From NCBI GenBank assembly GCA_000934665.2, contig KZ538102.1:1-64000 (forward strand): 64,000 nt of DNA. The letters run 5' to 3'. Made by a program: the position numbers and the translations under genes. The notes beneath the pieces are model-generated. The model searched no databases. It had not been told where the DNA came from and worked only from the letters and a program-made list of their open reading frames with translations. This DNA comes from Catajapyx aquilonaris. Taxonomy: Eukaryota. Shown piece after piece: positions 15,482 through 33,013 of this stretch (its first letter is position 1; each line of letters starts with the position of its first letter).

Positions 15482-15510
15482 NNNNNNNNNNNNNNNNNNN
15501 NNNNNNNNNN
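15482..15510. other. Assembly gap (N run)
   Basis: 29 N bases. Confidence 1.
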
Positions 15511-15950: not shown

Positions 15951-18690
15951 GTGCATCATTTATTCCCCCCATATTCAATACCATTAAGCCCTGGTTGAAT
16001 TCATCAGTCGCCAAAATTATCAATATTTACAGTTCAGACAGAAGCAAGTGGGTCCCTGCGCTATTGGAGGAAATAGACCAGAGCCAGTTGCCTAAACACT
16101 GGGGAGGAACAATGGTCGATCCAGATGGAGACCCCCGATGCCCATCTAAGGTTACTCTTAACGCGACTGACACTTTTTTACACGCTTTATATTAGCTTCA
16201 CGTTGTCTGTGAGTGTGTGTGTCCACCCCTCTCTTCGCCATTGCCCCACCATCTATCGGTAGTTATTAACGTTAGGGGTGATTTCGCGCCTTCCTACACC
16301 ATCTAGCGGTTCGTATTCACAATAGGTAGTCACGTGATTGGCTGTGTTCGCTACCTCCCTACCGTCTGGCGGTAGTAGTCACATGATGGGTGAATTTGCA
16401 ACTTCCATACCTACTAGCGGTAGTAGTCACGTGATTGCCTGTGTTCGCTACCTCCCTACCGTCTGGCGGTAGTAGTCACATGATGGGTGAATTTGCAACT
16501 TCCATACCTACTAGCGGTAGTAGTCACGTGATTGCCAGTGTTCGCTACCTCCCTACCGTCTGGCGGTAGTAGTCACATAATGGGTGAATTTGCAACTTCC
16601 ATACATACTAGCGGTAGTAGTCACGTGAGTCGGTCCCTTGCCCCACCATCTCAGATACTTCCGTCAGCTACTTCCCCCCTCTCCGCCACTTCTTGCTTTC
16701 CACCCCATTGGTGGGGAGGTTCGCTCCCCACACCATCTTGTGGTTGGTATTCGCATTAGGGGGTCACTTCGCAACTTCAACGCCAGATGGCGGAAGTAGT
16801 CAAGTGAGGTTGTCACATCGCTACACATCTCCGTCGCTACTTCCTCCACATCATGCTCCACATCATCGGGAGGTATAGTCACGTGATTTGCTGTGTTCCC
16901 TACCTCCCTACTCACATGATGGGTGAATTAGCAACTTCCATACCTACTAGCGGTAGTATGTAGTCACGTGAGTCGGTCTGTTAGCAATCTCCACGCCAGT
17001 CACCGGAGTTACTGGCTCTCAGTAACCAGTTCGCTTCCTCCAAACCACAGGGCGGGAGTAAATACTCCACACTGTTTTTTAGTGACAAAGTGAAAATATT
17101 ACAAATCACAGCCTGGCACCACATTCAACTAACTCCCCATGTACTATACATCTGTCATTCCTTCCACTTTATCACTAAAAACCAGTTAAAATAAAAATAA
17201 ATAAAAAGCCTTTTTAAGAACACGCTTTATATTTCCAAGTGCACTAAAAAGTAGAAAATAATTTTTCTTCCTCAATCTTCAGCTTTCTCTTTTACCTTGA
17301 ACTGAACAGAAGATTCATGACTTTCTTTCCGTGGAATTCAGCTACTGCAGTATTGTCTTGCTTTACTTATATTCTTATACGGCCTACATGACAAAAAATA
17401 AAGCGTGGGCACTAAATGACACATAATCGACTTCCATGGCATGAAATATAACCATGTACAGTATTAAAATTTTAGTGCCCACGCTTTATTTTTCGTCATG
17501 TAGGCCGTATAAGAATATAAGTAAAGCAAGACAATACTGCAGTAGCTGAATTCCACGGAAAGAAAGTCATGAATCTTCTGTTCAGTTCAAGGTAAAAGAG
17601 AAAGCTGAAGATTGAGGAAGAAAAATTATTTTCTACTTTTTAGTGCACTTGGAAATATAAAGCGTGTTCTTAAAAAGGTTTTTCATTTATTTTTATTTAA
17701 AAATATATTTCCTGTAATACCTCTACTCTTGTGCCAGGTGTGTGTCCACTGTGAATTTCCAAAGTCGGTCTACATGAAAAGTGTAGATGCCACAGCAAAG
17801 AAAAAGTTGAAGAAGGCCTTTGTAGACATGTGAGATATTCCAACTGGATGTTCATGTACCAGTAGATGGATCCATATTGAGGTACACTGAAGGAAGTTAC
17901 TGTAAAGGACATGGGTTAACTCCTTATGTAAAAGTTGTACAGTTGGATTTTGCTCAAACTTGGTCAGTTGATAAAGCTCGACCCCAGGGTCAATTGTTCT
18001 GAAGGACGAAGAAAATCTACCGTGCCGTTTGGCCGCTAAAGGCGCTCAAAATTCAATTTTCAATGTTGTCAAATCTTGGTGAAATTAACACATATTGTAG
18101 AGTTCGATGAGCTGATTCAAATGCGCTATGGGACCATTTTCTCTGACAAACCATTTGGTCGTTATAGTTAGTTGCAGAGCTGTACAGTGTGTAGGTTTTA
18201 CAGCAATATAAGTTGATCTACAATAGCCTCGACATAAAAGTGTATCGCATCAGGCTACATGCAAAATAATGGTCCTTATTTGGTACCCTGACAGTTGATG
18301 AATACATACACATGTCTCCTTTTTTTGGACTCTTTGACTTCATCATTGTAGGTGGATGTTCTACACGGATGGATTCGACATCGATTTCAAAATCCACTAT
18401 GAAGATGTCAATGGAACACATGAAATTGTCAGCCTTCTTCGTGAGTCGTGTTATTTCACCATGGTTGAAGGAGAAACCACCACTTTGAAATCGGGGAAAT
18501 GTAAGAACAAAGTCACTTATTGGAACACATCGAATGGGATGTCAATCATTTCTAACACTAATTTCCCCTAATTACTGTTGCAGATGTAGTAGCATTCGAC
18601 AACAGCTACTACAAACTGAAGGGCAAAACCATATCATATTCCATATCTGTAACTGCACCAAACCATTAGTGATTCTCCAGAGACCAGTTT
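15951..18690 (+). pseudogene. SEC14-like copy A: last four exons only, frameshifted
   Basis: Exons nearly identical to copy B (PKHWGGTMVDPDGDPRCPSK, WMFYTDG, FDNSYYKL); 2-bp deletion (gacatgtga vs gacatatgtgag) gives a stop at 17831-17833; two intronic insertions absent from B. Confidence 0.8.
16180..17700. mobile_element. Helentron/DINE-like insertion with 97-bp tandem repeats and a terminal foldback
   Basis: Inserted in a T-run (empty site in copy B); subterminal IR acacgcttt/aaagcgtgt; (gt)n near the 5' end; repeat units start at 16326, 16423, 16520, 16617. Confidence 0.6.
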
Positions 18691-22428: not shown

Positions 22429-24657
22429 ATGTCGATTCTTAATTTGACGGATGAAGAGAAAAATGCTTTTCACAAGGTAGGCTTTAGAACATGAGCAATA
22501 ACGTGTATGTTGCATAAGAACATATTTTAGGTAGTAATCTCACAGTATCTATAATATTATTGTGAATATCAAGTGTTGAAAGATTCATATTTCTCATATT
22601 TTTTCCAGTTTCGAGAGATTGCTTCAGAATACATACAACCACACCATAATGACCATTACTTGCTGAAGTGGCTTAGAGGTACCATAATAATATTATTATT
22701 ATGATAATCATGTTATGTCGAGATCATTTTTATTGCAATATTTTAATATGGTCATTTGCCTTATTCGTTTTGTTTTTATAGAAAAACACTTTGATCCTAA
22801 AAAAGCAGCTGATATGTTTTGCGAGGTCAGTGCATTATGACGATATTTTATAGAATTTTATAGAATAATAATAATATTCATAGTTGTTATAACAATGTGA
22901 TATTAATATTGTTTGCAATGTATCAATAACATCTGACAAATCATTTTCAACTATTAATAAAATAAATATGTGAATATTACAGTCTATGAAATGGAGAATC
23001 ACACATGGAATTGATCACATCGTGGAAATCTGGGATCCACCCAAGTTTTTCGAGATAATATCTTGTCGAGGAATCGTAGGATTTAACCAATTAGGTTCCT
23101 CAGGTAAGAAAAAAAATACACAAAATAGTTTTATTCATATCACTTGACAAACTTATCACTCGAGTTACACAGTGAGATATTAAATTTTCTTCCTATACCT
23201 TTTACGCTCATTTTGGCTCAAGAAGTCACCCAGTGCCCACAGCAGTATGTATAAGAAACACTCTTTATTTTGCATATAGTGTTGTTATTCCCAGTGGGCC
23301 GATGGGACATAAAAGGCATGTTGTTGTCGATTACAATAGAAGATATCGCCTTGAACTTGGTGTACCTTATTGAGAAAAGCCGGCTGAAAGTAGAGCAAGA
23401 AAGCAAACCATCTGGCGACATTTTGGAGTCAAAAGAAACTATAATTCTGGATTTTGAAGGCATAGATTACACTGTGGCCATGTGGAAAACTGGTATGAAG
23501 TTTTGTATGGGATTATTGATTTTAAAAAAATAACTCTAGTTGCAGATCCAATGTCAATGCTAAAAATATTATGTACGTATGTGATCAAAAACTGTCATTT
23601 TTTCCAGCTTGGAAATTGGTTGCACGACTCACCATTGTTCTTGGTTCCCATTACCCCCAATCTTTTACCTCTGTGTTTGTTATTAACGGTAAGCATCAGC
23701 ATTGAAACGCACATTTTATTGTCCCAATTTGGAAAAATATTATATATTATTATTATATATGACGATGATATTATAACATATGACGATGATATTATAACAT
23801 ATGACGATGATATTATAATATATGCCGATGATATGATGATATTATAATTATACATAAACGTCATATTGGATGTGATTACTGACTAATGTATCATATACTT
23901 GCAGCTGCAGGATTCATTCCCCCTATATTCAACATGATTAAGCACATGATGAATGAATCAATCTGCAAAATTATCAAGATTTACCGTTCAGACAGAAGCA
24001 AGTGGGTCCCTGCTTTATTGGATGAAATAGACCCAAGCCAGTTGCCCAAACACTGGGGAGGAACAATGGTAGATTCTGATGGTGACCCCCAATGCCCATC
24101 TAAGGTGAATCCTTCGTATTTGTAAAAATACCTGTGACGTCAGTTGTTTTTGTAACTTAGGTGTGTACTAATATGGAATTTCCAAAATCTGTGTACATGA
24201 AAAGCGTCACTGCATCTACAAAAAATATGACGATGAAGACAGCCTTTGTAGATGTGGGTGAAACTGTTCGATTGGACGTAGAAGTGAAGATTGATGACTC
24301 CAAATTAAGGTAAATATTGAGGTATTTTGTAGACATTGTCGATCTTATAAGTGTGTCGTCATAGATGGATGTTCTACACCGATGGAGTCGACATCAACTT
24401 TTTTATTCACCGTCAAGGTGTCAATGGGCTAGATGAAATTGTCAACCTTCGGCGAGAGCGATGTTACTTCACTCTGGTCGAAGGAGAGACCACCACATTG
24501 AAATCGGGGAAATGTACGTAGTCTCAAGTATAATAATACGCAATGATTAATAGTCCAAAACATTGTTACAGATGTAGTAACTTTCGACAACAGCTACTAC
24601 AGATTGAAGGGAAAGACCGTATCTTACTCAATATCTGTAATTCCACCAGGATGTTAG
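22429..24657 (+). CDS. SEC14-like protein, copy C (10 exons)
   Basis: Same motifs and intron phases; frame intact. Confidence 0.88.
23757..23848. repeat. Intronic 21-bp minisatellite (atatgacgatgatattataac), ~4 copies
   Basis: Direct tandem units visible. Confidence 0.85.
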
Positions 24658-28988: not shown

Positions 28989-31341
28989 ATGGACAACGAG
29001 GAGCTCTGCCGACTTCAGGGAGACTCTCTGAAAAAGGTATGGAATTATTTATATGTAATAAGTCGTACTGTACCTTCAGACTGGTTCATTGTTAAGATGA
29101 GGTGCACAATAATAATTATAAGAGTAAATTAATAAAATGAGAAAAATAAACATGTTACATATTAAAGTCCACATGACAGTCTTATGTAACATGTTTATAG
29201 AGTCACAAAGGTTATTTGAAATGTCCCAATTTTGAGCTTCAATAGTCACAGATCATTTCACTAATTTAAAATTTTATCAGTAACCAGTTTAGAAAAGAAA
29301 CAATGTTGCCCTGATTGTTGTTCCCAACGGGTTTGCACTTAATACTGGTTGAGAACCGGTAATTAAAAAGAAGGTTTCTTTCAGTTTAGAGAGCTCCTGT
29401 CAGATGTATTGCAAGCGAAACACAATGACATCGTCCTCCTCAAATTTCTCAGAGGTATTGTTTTTTTGGATCCAGGAAACATTCCTAATCTACGTGCTCT
29501 ATTATCACTTTTTAATTGCAGTGCAAAGATTTGACCTACAAAAGGCAGAAAAAATGTTTCGCGAGGTTTGTACCTTTTTAATAATATTTGAATAGGCAAA
29601 CAGATTTTAATCTATGCATATTCTCAGAATCAAGATTGGCGAATTAAGTATGGAATAGACCACATCTTTGAAATGTGGGATCCTCCTGAGAAATATAAAG
29701 TGTTCGACCGTGGAAATGTAGGTAACGACAAGAAAGGAAATCCTGGTCAGTAAATATGATATTACTTTCACTTAACACTAATATAATAATATGATAATGA
29801 TGCGACCTATTATTTGTGACACGTAACAACAAAATTAGTATGTGAAATATTTTTTTCCAGTACTTATATTTCCACTTGGACGCTGGGACATGAAGGGGTT
29901 GTTATCCTCATGTCTAGTTGAAGACTATGCACTTTACATGGTAGTTATCGTTGAAAGGATGTGGCTGGAAGCAAGGAAGATGGAAGAGAAAACAGGTTAC
30001 TTCCCACAATCGAGCACTGTCATTTTGGATATGGAAGGATTTGATCACTCAACACTCTTCTGGAAACCTGGTGTGTGAAACACCATGCACTTGTTCATAT
30101 TTTGGTAATAAATCCAATCACATTACAGTTTGGCAACTGGCAATATTCCTGAGCCACATATTTAGTGCAAACTACCCACTCTCCATGAGCCGTTTATTTG
30201 CAATCAACTGTGAGTATTGTACTCTACAATTATTCATTTAACTACCTTTGATGATATTTTTCAGGTCTTCCAGTGGCACCGTATGCTTACTACATGCTGA
30301 AACCCCTCCTGAATGAAAGTGTCAGCAGTGTCTTGCAGGTATTCAGTTCAGACAAATCCAAGTGGTTGCCTGCCATACTTGAAGTGGTGGATGAAAATCA
30401 GTTGCCTAAGCACTGGGGTGGAACATGCGTGGATCCTGATGGGGATCCTTTTTGCCCTTCTAAGGTCAGTCACGATAATTGTCATACTCTAGTTCCTTAA
30501 CCAACTCTTTATCGCCAGTTGCCCATTGAGAAAAGGTCACATTTTTTTACATAAATATGATTCGTAATCAGGATGTATTTGGCCTACTTTGGTCCTATCC
30601 CAATATTTTTTGCAGATTTTTTAAAAAATGATTGATGTTGTTCACAGGTTTGTTTGTGATGTTGTTCACAGGTTTGTTTGTGATGTTGTTCACAGGTTTG
30701 TTTGTGATGTTGTTCACAGGTTTGTTTGTGATGTTGTTCACAGGTTTGTTTGTGATGTTGTTCACAGGTTTGTTTGTGATGTTGTTCACAGGTTTGTTTG
30801 TGATGTTGTTCACAGGTTTGTTTGTGATGTTGTTCACAGGTTTGTTTGGGAATAGAATTTCCTAAGGATGAATACATGGCGCATATGACAAGTCTCATTG
30901 CGCATAGATGTTCAGAAAAAGTACAGGTGCCAAATGGATCTGCTGTGGAGGTTAATGTGGAAGTGGAAGATGAAGGTGTAACACTAAGGTTTGTTTCCTG
31001 TTTGTATAGTGTGATTACAAGGTTAATATTCTGCAATTTTTTTGTGTAATAGTTGGGCGTTCTACACTGATGGATACAACATTGATTTTATGGTGCATCG
31101 AGAAGGTGACACTTATACAGAGGAAGTGATTCCGAAAAGACGAATCGAAAGCTACTTTACACTTGTGGAGGGATCAGTCTTGTGCACACAACCTGGAAAT
31201 TGTATGTCTCAAAATAGGAATTATGTGGCTTACGCATTTAATGATCTTTATTTATTTTCAGATATCGTGACATTCGACAACAGTTACTACAAATTGAGAA
31301 GCAAAAATATATGGTACTCTATGGAGATTTCGTCACCTTAG
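28989..31341 (+). CDS. SEC14-like protein, copy E (10 exons; exon-8 acceptor tandemly repeated)
   Basis: LLKFLR, GRWDMKG, NYP, PKHWGG...CPSK, VCLGIEFPK, FDNSYYKL. Confidence 0.85.
30633..30848 (+). repeat. Perfect 24-bp tandem repeat x9 (tgatgttgttcacaggtttgtttg) spanning an intron/exon boundary
   Basis: cag ends at 30647, 30671, 30695, 30719, 30743, 30767, 30791, 30815, 30839. Confidence 0.97.
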
Positions 31342-31527
31342 GTGTCTCCATACAGAATTATTAGTTGTTACAAGGTCATACTGTAGTAAGTTAGTGTGAG
31401 ATACTACAAGGTATGTCTGTAGTTGTCGTTATCTTTAAATGGTTGTATCTCATTACTTACAGTAGATTAGTGCATTATAAATCACACTGCGGTTTATTAT
31501 AATAATATCCCAATACTTCATCGTATA

Positions 31528-31824
31528 TCTATATAAATAAATCCGTTTGTGAGTCTGTCTGTATGTCTGTCCGCCTGCCAACCGTCATTTTCCAGCCATC
31601 TGTGCTCCACCCCCAGGCCGGGAGAGGATGGAGGTGTTGGAGGTTGAGTACAGATGGCAGGCAAATGACGGTTGGCGTTATACAGGCGGGAAGGTGTTGG
31701 AGTAGCAGGACCACAGATGGCATTGGTGGGCGGACACACAGAAAGACAGACAGTTGACGGGGGTACTGGCCGGTGTTTTCCCTTCATTCATTTCTTCCCG
31801 GGCAACGCCGGGTGCCGCAGCTAG
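31528..31824 (+). mobile_element. Non-autonomous Helitron
   Basis: 5' TC(tatataaat), (gtct)n, 3' hairpin cccgggcaacgccggg then CTAG, inserted between A and T. Confidence 0.85.
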
Positions 31825-33013
31825 TATAGGATAACTTTGAGGAACGTTAGTTTGGAGCAGGCGTATAGGAGTTTCTGTCGTATGTAACGGAAACCCTGTA
31901 TGGTAATTTTTAAGGAACGGACAGGTAGTTGGAACACAATGGAATGACATCTTGAAACAATAAAGTGTTGCTTCCTCTTTGAAGAGTGTTGTATTACTGA
32001 ATTCTTTGGCAAATAGAAATGAAGGCATGACATGCAGAACTAGAATGGGTTGGTGATATGATGGTTTAAGTTTTAAGATTTCATTATATCATGTCTGTGT
32101 GTAAGTATCAAGGTTTGTACAGCGACTTTCTCTCTGTCTTTTTGAATGGCAGTCGCTTAATATAAAAATATGTGTTTAATTAACCTTTATTTGTTTTGCA
32201 ATTCCTGAAAACTGGTTTTGTAAACACCGAGTTGTGACTTTCCTTTCTGTAATCCAATGTTGTTTACAGTCCACATTTTTCTTACAGTTAGTTAAAAGGC
32301 AAAATTGTGCGCATACAATATGGTACTTTCAAATGCAATTTAATGCAGTGTCATTTAGGTCAAGTACGATGCCATTAATACTGGCAAATATTTCAGGTCT
32401 GTGACTTTTTAAAGCGGTAAAGGTATTTCAGAGATGGTCAACTCCCACTTGTTCCTTACCAAACGTCTTACTATAGTGATTATGGCCTGTATCCAAGGGT
32501 AAACTTGTATCTGTACTTTGCTCATGTCACTGGTTAGCACTCCATCGTACGTTGCCCATCAGATAGACTCTAGTGACAATGACCTGGAACAGTAGCATTG
32601 GCAATGGAAACATCAAACAAGGACAAAATGATGCTCCCATTCCATCTATATTATTGAAGCACTCTCATCATCTGTGTTTCAGAATATTTCTGACAAAGTT
32701 GTAGAGTAAACCATTTACCAGAAAATCATGTTATGTAGAGTAGGCCTATTCATCCTGAAAGACTTTTGGGTGCAAATATTCTAATCATACATTTGGATGG
32801 ATTGGACTTGTCAATGGCAAGTCAATATTTACACAGCTAATCAAAGTTCATGAAGTTTGTACACAATTTCCATGTAAAGTTTCGGAATCACCGTATCAGA
32901 TTAGGAGTCTATAAAAGCTGGTGGCAACTTATCGCTGCTCCTAGACAGAAACTAAAGCGGCTAGACAGGACGTTGTTTACATATCCGACTGGCATTTGTA
33001 TATTTTTGACACT

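Follow-up and report, generated by a model that had tools for sequence, protein, structure and literature searches.

A tandemly repeated intron 7/exon 8 boundary of the acceptor-side 'mirage' kind in a SEC14L2-like gene

The window (the whole 64-kb stretch of DNA analysed) carries eight tandem SEC14L2-like genes encoding CRAL-TRIO and GOLD domains, all on the + strand between approximately 15.9 and 40.3 kb and with intron positions in common. The fifth of these, gene E, contains a short tandem repeat exactly at its intron 7/exon 8 boundary, and this repeat is confined to one of the eight paralogs. The features of the locus are as follows:
28989..31341, + strand: host gene E, SEC14L2-like with CRAL-TRIO and GOLD domains, 10 exons, the fifth of the eight tandem paralogs
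30265..30464, + strand: exon 7, which encodes the end of the CRAL-TRIO domain and finishes in phase 0 (..CPSK), with donor AAG/gtcagt at 30465
30465..30632, + strand: unique part of intron 7, 168 nt, with three cryptic acceptors (30518, 30571 and 30615), each of which reads into a stop
30593..30615, + strand: cryptic acceptor 32 nt before AG1, outside the repeat, reading I-F-stop
30633..30848, + strand: array of nine identical 24-nt units, period 24
30646..30815, + strand: decoy acceptors AG1-AG8, with the G at 30647, 30671 ... 30815 (30647+24k)
30653..30840, + strand: arms of predicted RNA hairpins, in which UUUGUGA (8 copies, junction-spanning) pairs with UCACAGG around the AG (9 copies) according to a folding model
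30838..30839, + strand: AG9, the last acceptor, reading VCLGIEF..
30840..30988, + strand: exon 8, 149 nt, which encodes the linker and the first part of the GOLD region, with donor CTAAG/gtttgttt

The gene E model aligns over residues 1-379 with the full-length homologue P0007 (34% identity, E 2e-86), whose domains are CRAL_TRIO at 95-256 and GOLD-type matches at 299-387 and 336-385 (PF00650 and PF13897). On this alignment gene E has the SEC14-GOLD (SEC14L2/TAP-like) architecture of a CRAL-TRIO domain followed by a C-terminal GOLD domain. Queried as fragments, exons 5-7 match PF00650 weakly, with CRAL_TRIO ending at residue 52 of the 66 encoded by exon 7 (E 3.6e-4, below the Pfam cut-off and for a fragment query only), while exons 8 and 9 queried alone gave no Pfam match. 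Exon 7 also matches residues 198-257 of human SEC14L2, and the near homologues are arthropod SEC14L2-like proteins that align end to end, the named members being from Daphnia and a thrips. Of the 303 relatives returned by a profile search, the best reached 66% over 35 residues and none was from gene E. Searches for a transcript-derived protein across the exon 7/8 junction gave no candidate with exon 8 as query and eight candidates, none significant, with exon 5, which is weak evidence either way. No other lesion was found in the gene E frame, and no significant repeat of the unique intron 7 sequence occurs elsewhere in the 64-kb window.

Several other features of the gene array were noted. Paralog A (15951-18670) and paralog B are near copies of each other (145/149 nt identical in exon 9). 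Paralog A has a 2-nt deletion and a stop in exon 8 and a 1587-nt intron 7; its 5′ exons were not found before an N gap at 15482-15510, and it is probably a decayed duplicate. Its intron 7, the same intron as that of the gene E repeat, contains a 97-bp unit in 3.1 copies (16326-16628; 98% matches) and, by eye, a long MITE-like inverted repeat at 17330-17690 whose arms flank a centre near 17450. In paralog C, intron 6 carries a 21-bp unit in 4.5 copies (23748-23842), clear of any splice site. Paralog H, close to homologue P0007, has no intron at residue 164. Just 3′ of gene E, at 31520-31830, lies an element of ~300 nt that starts TC..TATATATAAAT and ends in a GC hairpin and CTAG, and which resembles a non-autonomous Helitron.

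The repeated unit, TGATGTTGTTCACAG/GTTTGTTTG, joins the final 15 nt of intron 7 to the opening 9 nt of exon 8, and all nine units at 30633-30848 are identical. Each carries CAG/GTTTGT, an acceptor abutting a donor-like motif. No further match to the unit with up to three mismatches occurs elsewhere in the 64-kb window (chance expectation 0, 100 shuffles). An in-frame TGA arises at every unit junction, with the consequence that AG1-AG8 each read V-C-L-TGA and give a 260-aa product without GOLD, the stop lying 310-478 nt upstream of the last exon junction. AG9 alone among the nine acceptors completes the open 10-exon, 382-aa frame; translation of the modelled products of exon 8 skipping and of intron 7 retention ends in early stops in both cases. 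These results bear out the anatomy given in an earlier note made from the sequence, which had described nine copies of an intron end joined to an exon-8 start, a phase 0 end of exon 7 (CPSK), full-length protein from the last acceptor only (30839) and a stop between the CRAL-TRIO and GOLD domains. The decoy stop maps in the alignment to about residue 273 of P0007, between its CRAL_TRIO (95-256) and the start of its GOLD-type matches at 299. The in-frame stop is no sign of design, since it also appears in 15/60 like-sized hypothetical duplications placed at other junctions of the gene array. A coding role for the units was considered and rejected: every unit carries a stop in the exon-8 frame, and the two other + frames and two − frames that are open join nothing.

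Three of the four listed DNA runs, all from one sample that is possibly the source of the assembly, were compared over the region 30801-31520 (the last two units and exons 8-10). All three contained a contig forming a 54-nt cycle at a depth of 164-203, together with a flank contig at a depth of 32-37 starting at 30819. In a graph simulation the flank starts at 30819 with at least three units, at 30801 with two, and at 30825 with one unit or with one plus nine. The observed start and the cycle contig together indicate that the repeat is real and has at least three units, with no single-unit allele seen. As the runs are from one sample, this verifies the assembly rather than the species. The earlier note had allowed that raw reads might hold a single unit; the cycle and flank contigs of the three DNA runs refute this version of an assembly artefact. 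The broader view that the assembler invented the repeat could appeal to the perfect units and to a depth suggesting fewer than nine of them, but with the cycle at 4.5-6.0 times the flank depth in 3/3 DNA runs and a flank start that fits at least three units, we give it almost no credence.

Copy number is less well matched. The cycle/flank depth ratios of 5.13, 5.95 and 4.54 correspond to 6.4, 7.2 and 5.8 units, and all three lie below the 95% range simulated for a 9/9 genotype (6.1-9.2) and within the ranges for 7/7 or 9/4 (60 simulations per genotype, assuming 100-nt reads and leaving out sequencing bias). Depth therefore fits about 6-7 units rather than nine. Nine may be an overcount, the two alleles may be unequal, or the depth may be biased.

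Splice signals were scored with weight matrices built from 58 of the 70 modelled introns of the gene array, the other 12 being dropped as mis-modelled or as the intron in question. These introns are short (shortest 55 nt, median 70.5 nt). Intron 7 measures 56-74 nt in four of the six other paralogs modelled, and 162 and 1587 nt in the remaining two. AG2-AG9 have one common weak score, above 3/58 of the array acceptors, and AG1 scores above 11/58, while the acceptor at 30615 outscores all 58. No NTRAY branch motif occurs within 50 nt of the 30615 acceptor; YTRAY is found at −45 to −6 in only 32/58 array introns, and branch motifs are thus uninformative here. The score of AG9 is no higher than that of the decoys, so that it is favoured only by the downstream exon and not by the sequence itself. 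The 30615 acceptor would compete even in a single-unit allele.

The unit also scores well as a donor. Its GT (CAG/GTTTGTTT) ranks above 41/58 array donors, and GTTTGT is the donor of 3/58 modelled introns, two of them in gene E and one of these, that of intron 8, seen spliced in RNA, in agreement with the earlier statement that this motif serves as a donor elsewhere in the array. Joining exon 7 to any unit gives CTAAG/GTTTGTTT, identical over 13 nt to the intron-8 donor used in RNA run X5. CTAAG closes exon 7 (30460-30464) as well as exon 8 (junction 30988-30996), and GTTTGTTT opens exon 8 as well as intron 8, so that the normal mRNA junction itself copies the next donor. The units might consequently be AG/GT ratchet points from which the full frame is regained by nested or recursive splicing, with a product equal to that of direct AG9 use: either an inner intron from a unit GT to AG9 (72-192 nt) would be cut out first, restoring one unit, or the donor formed by exon 7 and a decoy would be respliced to AG9. 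We regard this as unlikely. The donor score and the RNA-proven sequence of the regenerated junction argue for it, as do spans of 3-8 units that exceed the 55 nt of the shortest array intron and the splicing of a duplicated AGGT segment in 6-16% of mRNA in human cells (PMC3265369). Yet the same latent donor is present in normal mRNA, and in 4/6 of the other paralogs modelled at this junction the first letters of exon 8 are GT, which suggests that such a donor is normally silent; the score of the regenerated donor is, moreover, inflated by the identical intron-8 donor in the training set. Splicing intermediates were not seen among the assembled contigs, and in the available part of PMC8184009 the exon junction complex represses regenerated donors in Drosophila. 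Compared with known ratchet points, the unit has the acceptor directly followed by a donor motif, but the host intron, at 375 nt, is not very long.

The units are also predicted to fold on one another. In the folding model UUUGUGA pairs with UCACAGG either upstream (−5.7 kcal/mol) or downstream (−4.0 kcal/mol), and the more stable of these local hairpins would mask AG2-AG9 and leave AG1 free. Over 24 settings of temperature and span, AG2-AG8 are predicted to be unpaired at ≤ 0.12 in every setting, and the most open acceptor is AG9 in 13, AG1 in nine and AG3 (near zero) in two. When hairpins are limited to 30 nt, AG1 is predicted to be open (0.67-0.74) and AG9 masked (0.01-0.07). The model has the last AG more open at odd copy numbers when the temperature is 15-25 °C and the span 45-60 nt (at span 60, 0.67-0.94 at odd numbers with n ≥ 3 vs 0.26-0.48 at even numbers). 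At 37 °C this effect weakens as copies are added, and spans of 30 and 150 nt do not show it. We considered whether the array is unusually stable as RNA and rejected the idea: a z of −2.57 against plain shuffles was gone against a shuffled unit repeated nine times, of which 117/300 were as stable. The folding was matched by 21/60 control junctions, and in the model it would be an accident of sequence rather than evidence of selection. A long shot built on the same model is a self-masking acceptor array, in which n acceptors would compete for n−1 arms and one would be left free, the register set by copy-number parity and body temperature picking AG9 or AG1, and AG/GT ratchets could rescue part of the mis-spliced RNA. 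If true, one slippage step would flip the output, a VNTR-encoded, odd/even and temperature-sensitive splice switch in an ectotherm.

It is against this background that the proposal of the earlier note may be judged, namely that repeat number could tune the output between full-length protein and a form that lacks GOLD or is targeted by NMD. As a selected rheostat, copy number, or temperature acting through folding, would govern how much full-length product is made relative to GOLD-less or degraded product. In its favour, the stop lies neatly between the CRAL-TRIO and GOLD domains, the structure of a 278-residue SEC14L2 chain has been solved (4omj), a depth lower than nine copies predict may reflect unequal alleles, odd copy numbers open the last AG further under part of the modelled conditions (15-25 °C, spans of 45-60 nt), and, in the excerpted text of PMC1557585, extra sites are used at the donor-side VNTRs of human CBS and 6-16. 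These points are opposed by the lack of conservation, the repeat being found in 1/8 paralogs with units 100% identical and so young, by folding no stronger than chance (117/300 unit shuffles, 21/60 control junctions), and by an odd/even effect restricted to some temperatures and spans. Furthermore, the 260-aa form would lose a conserved linker found in homologues, RNA joining exon 7 to any AG was not seen in the region compared, variation in copy number is hinted at by depth only, and acceptor-side repeats of the same kind are reported without splicing disturbance in the accessible parts of PMC3087553 and PMC3902484. The one review found on GOLD-less SEC14L2 function says nothing on truncation in the part available. 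We consider a selected rheostat very unlikely. The earlier interpretation thus stands in its anatomy and coding outcomes, but it overlooked the known 'mirage' kind of repeat, the stronger decoy at 30615 and the AG/GT route back to the full frame.

RNA evidence came from one run, X5, made from a second sample and compared over the region 30801-31520; it is not recorded as RNA but proved to be spliced. Gene E is transcribed. A single X5 contig was found at the gene (672 nt, depth 7.36), with introns 8 and 9 removed at GT..AG; it starts at 30829 and extends ~104 nt beyond 31520, into the region of the ~300-nt element. The contig begins with 11 nt of acceptor-side sequence, matched without mismatch, from which the end of exon 7 differs at five places. 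Splicing at AG9 would give a match ending at 30838 and running on into exon 7, which differs from what was found, and use of AG1 in a long array would give a start at 30819 and a cycle, of which X5 has neither. As the contig fits neither prediction, its end is most simply a coverage drop-out: depth at the contig end may be 2-3, where it is common to miss a junction (20-41%). No weight is given to the gap in X5 cover at 30801-30828. Some X5 molecules are unspliced at AG9, as pre-mRNA, retained intron, decoy product or DNA. The contig leans slightly against harmlessness of the repeat, in a single low-depth run.

A rival reading, close to the simple inactivation that the earlier note had also allowed, is that the repeat knocks gene E down or out, the exon 7 donor being joined mostly to AG1 or 30615, or intron 7 being retained, in an incipient pseudogene of a birth-and-death array. 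An acceptor-side sequence with no exon 7 junction, as in the X5 contig, is what such a gene might yield, although ~339/561 upstream exon words appear to be present in X5 (a rough estimate from a share of 0.31). The scores of AG1 and 30615 above that of AG9 point the same way, as does the stabler hairpin of the model, predicted to mask AG2-AG9 and leave AG1 free, and the 2-nt deletion and exon 8 stop of paralog A indicate that the array tolerates decay. On the other hand, gene E has no other lesion, and X5 lacks the periodic cycle contig expected from abundant AG1-spliced or retained RNA with many units. Missed junctions are common at such depth (20-41% at an end depth of 2-3), the 11 nt may derive from pre-mRNA or DNA, and the published mirages are harmless as far as the sections available of PMC3087553 and PMC3902484 go. 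We hold a knocked-down gene to be possible, if doubtful.

The reading that we favour, tentatively and at somewhat less than an even chance, is that of an acceptor-side mirage that is unselected and tolerated with some loss of output, and not a regulated switch. The repeat is young, its units being 100% identical and present in 1/8 paralogs. Slippage or unequal crossing-over would recently have expanded the intron 7/exon 8 boundary, free of selection, in a redundant array. Full-length protein would need AG9, which is probably reached because it alone is backed by a true 149-nt exon 8 and its donor, the inner decoys being weak and, in the model, self-folded. Splicing to AG1 or 30615, or failed splicing, would give stop-containing RNA that is probably degraded, and nonsense-mediated decay would degrade the products that do not use AG9. 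The net effect would be neutral to a mildly lowered output. Identical units in 1/8 paralogs, a frame that is otherwise intact, the weakness of AG2-AG9 and the pairing of AG2-AG8 in the folding model are consistent with this tolerated mirage. It is countered by the acceptor-side start of the X5 contig, by AG1 and 30615 outscoring AG9 and by AG9 being the most open acceptor in 13/24 settings only. A preference for AG9 is further countered by the short introns of the array, as short introns favour intron definition and the nearest acceptor, and by the gamma-globin case cited in the portion available of PMC1557585, in which, of tandemly duplicated acceptors, the proximal copy was the one spliced.

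In kind, the gene E repeat is an acceptor-side 'mirage' minisatellite, already known from amphioxus and with human relatives (F7, CBS). As in a mirage, the tandem unit spans an intron–exon boundary (15 nt + 9 nt, nine units), a splice signal is reiterated (nine CAG acceptors, of which the last alone keeps the conserved frame) and the repeat is real in DNA (3/3 DNA runs of one sample). For length instability, depth gives 5.8-7.2 units vs nine assembled, with bias and unequal alleles indistinguishable; for undisturbed splicing, there is one X5 contig (depth 7.36) starting in the last unit. Searches of a partial literature library returned no arthropod case. As a by-product, the repeat extends mirages to an arthropod-like genome with short introns. 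It also offers a clean natural test of 3′ splice-site choice: a 375-nt intron contains nine acceptors that share a core, eight of which are fatal, and the junction to be expected differs between scanning, exon definition, RNA folding and recursive splicing. Were the parity or ratchet reading true, one slippage step could switch the gene, and AG/GT intron birth would have been caught in progress.

The human relatives differ in the side or the make-up of the repeat. In the accessible text of PMC2630376, CBS 844ins68 is a duplication of an intron 7/exon 8 junction in which splicing uses the distal copy and yields normal mRNA; gene E shares the position of the duplication and the competing sites at the acceptor end. 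However, CBS 844ins68 consists of two 68-bp copies with a point change in the proximal one, whereas gene E has nine identical 24-bp copies, the distal one marked only by the downstream exon. The 37-bp VNTR of human F7 IVS7 and the repeats of CBS IVS13, 6-16, LMNB2 and PDGF are donor-side junction minisatellites (PMC1557585, as excerpted). There too the end unit spans an exon–intron boundary, and of 5-9 identical sites the exon-adjacent one is authentic, but that site is transcribed first, whereas the authentic acceptor of gene E comes last. Judging by the parts available of PMC3265369 and PMC8184009, AGGT proto-splice duplications and Drosophila recursive sites resemble the array in their AG/GT units, a usable donor score and, at three or more units, a length above that of a minimal intron. 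Unlike in AGGT intron birth, the gene E duplication straddles an existing acceptor and would add a zero-length exon, with no new intron position.

Closest are the amphioxus mirages of the globin gene BflGb6, Adh3, troponin C and PGBD5, for which we follow the available portions of PMC3087553 and PMC3902484. BflGb6 has tandem copies of an intron 3′ end and the 5′ part of an exon (PMC3087553), and Adh3 mirage units measure 10-72 bp, a range that includes the 24 nt of gene E; mirages show length instability (PMC3087553). Head-to-tail copies, AG/GT signals within the units and an authentic copy in last place are common to both systems. Splicing was undisturbed by RT-PCR (PMC3087553), and likewise for Adh and troponin C (PMC3902484). 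Harmlessness in amphioxus thus rests on RT-PCR, whereas the gene E array is known from its DNA anatomy and one RNA contig. Unlike those of BflGb6 (81-100% identical), the gene E units are 100% identical and include only 9 exonic nt, and, in contrast to the amphioxus mirages as described in these portions, they lie in an arthropod-like genome with short introns, where every decoy leads to an immediate in-frame stop.
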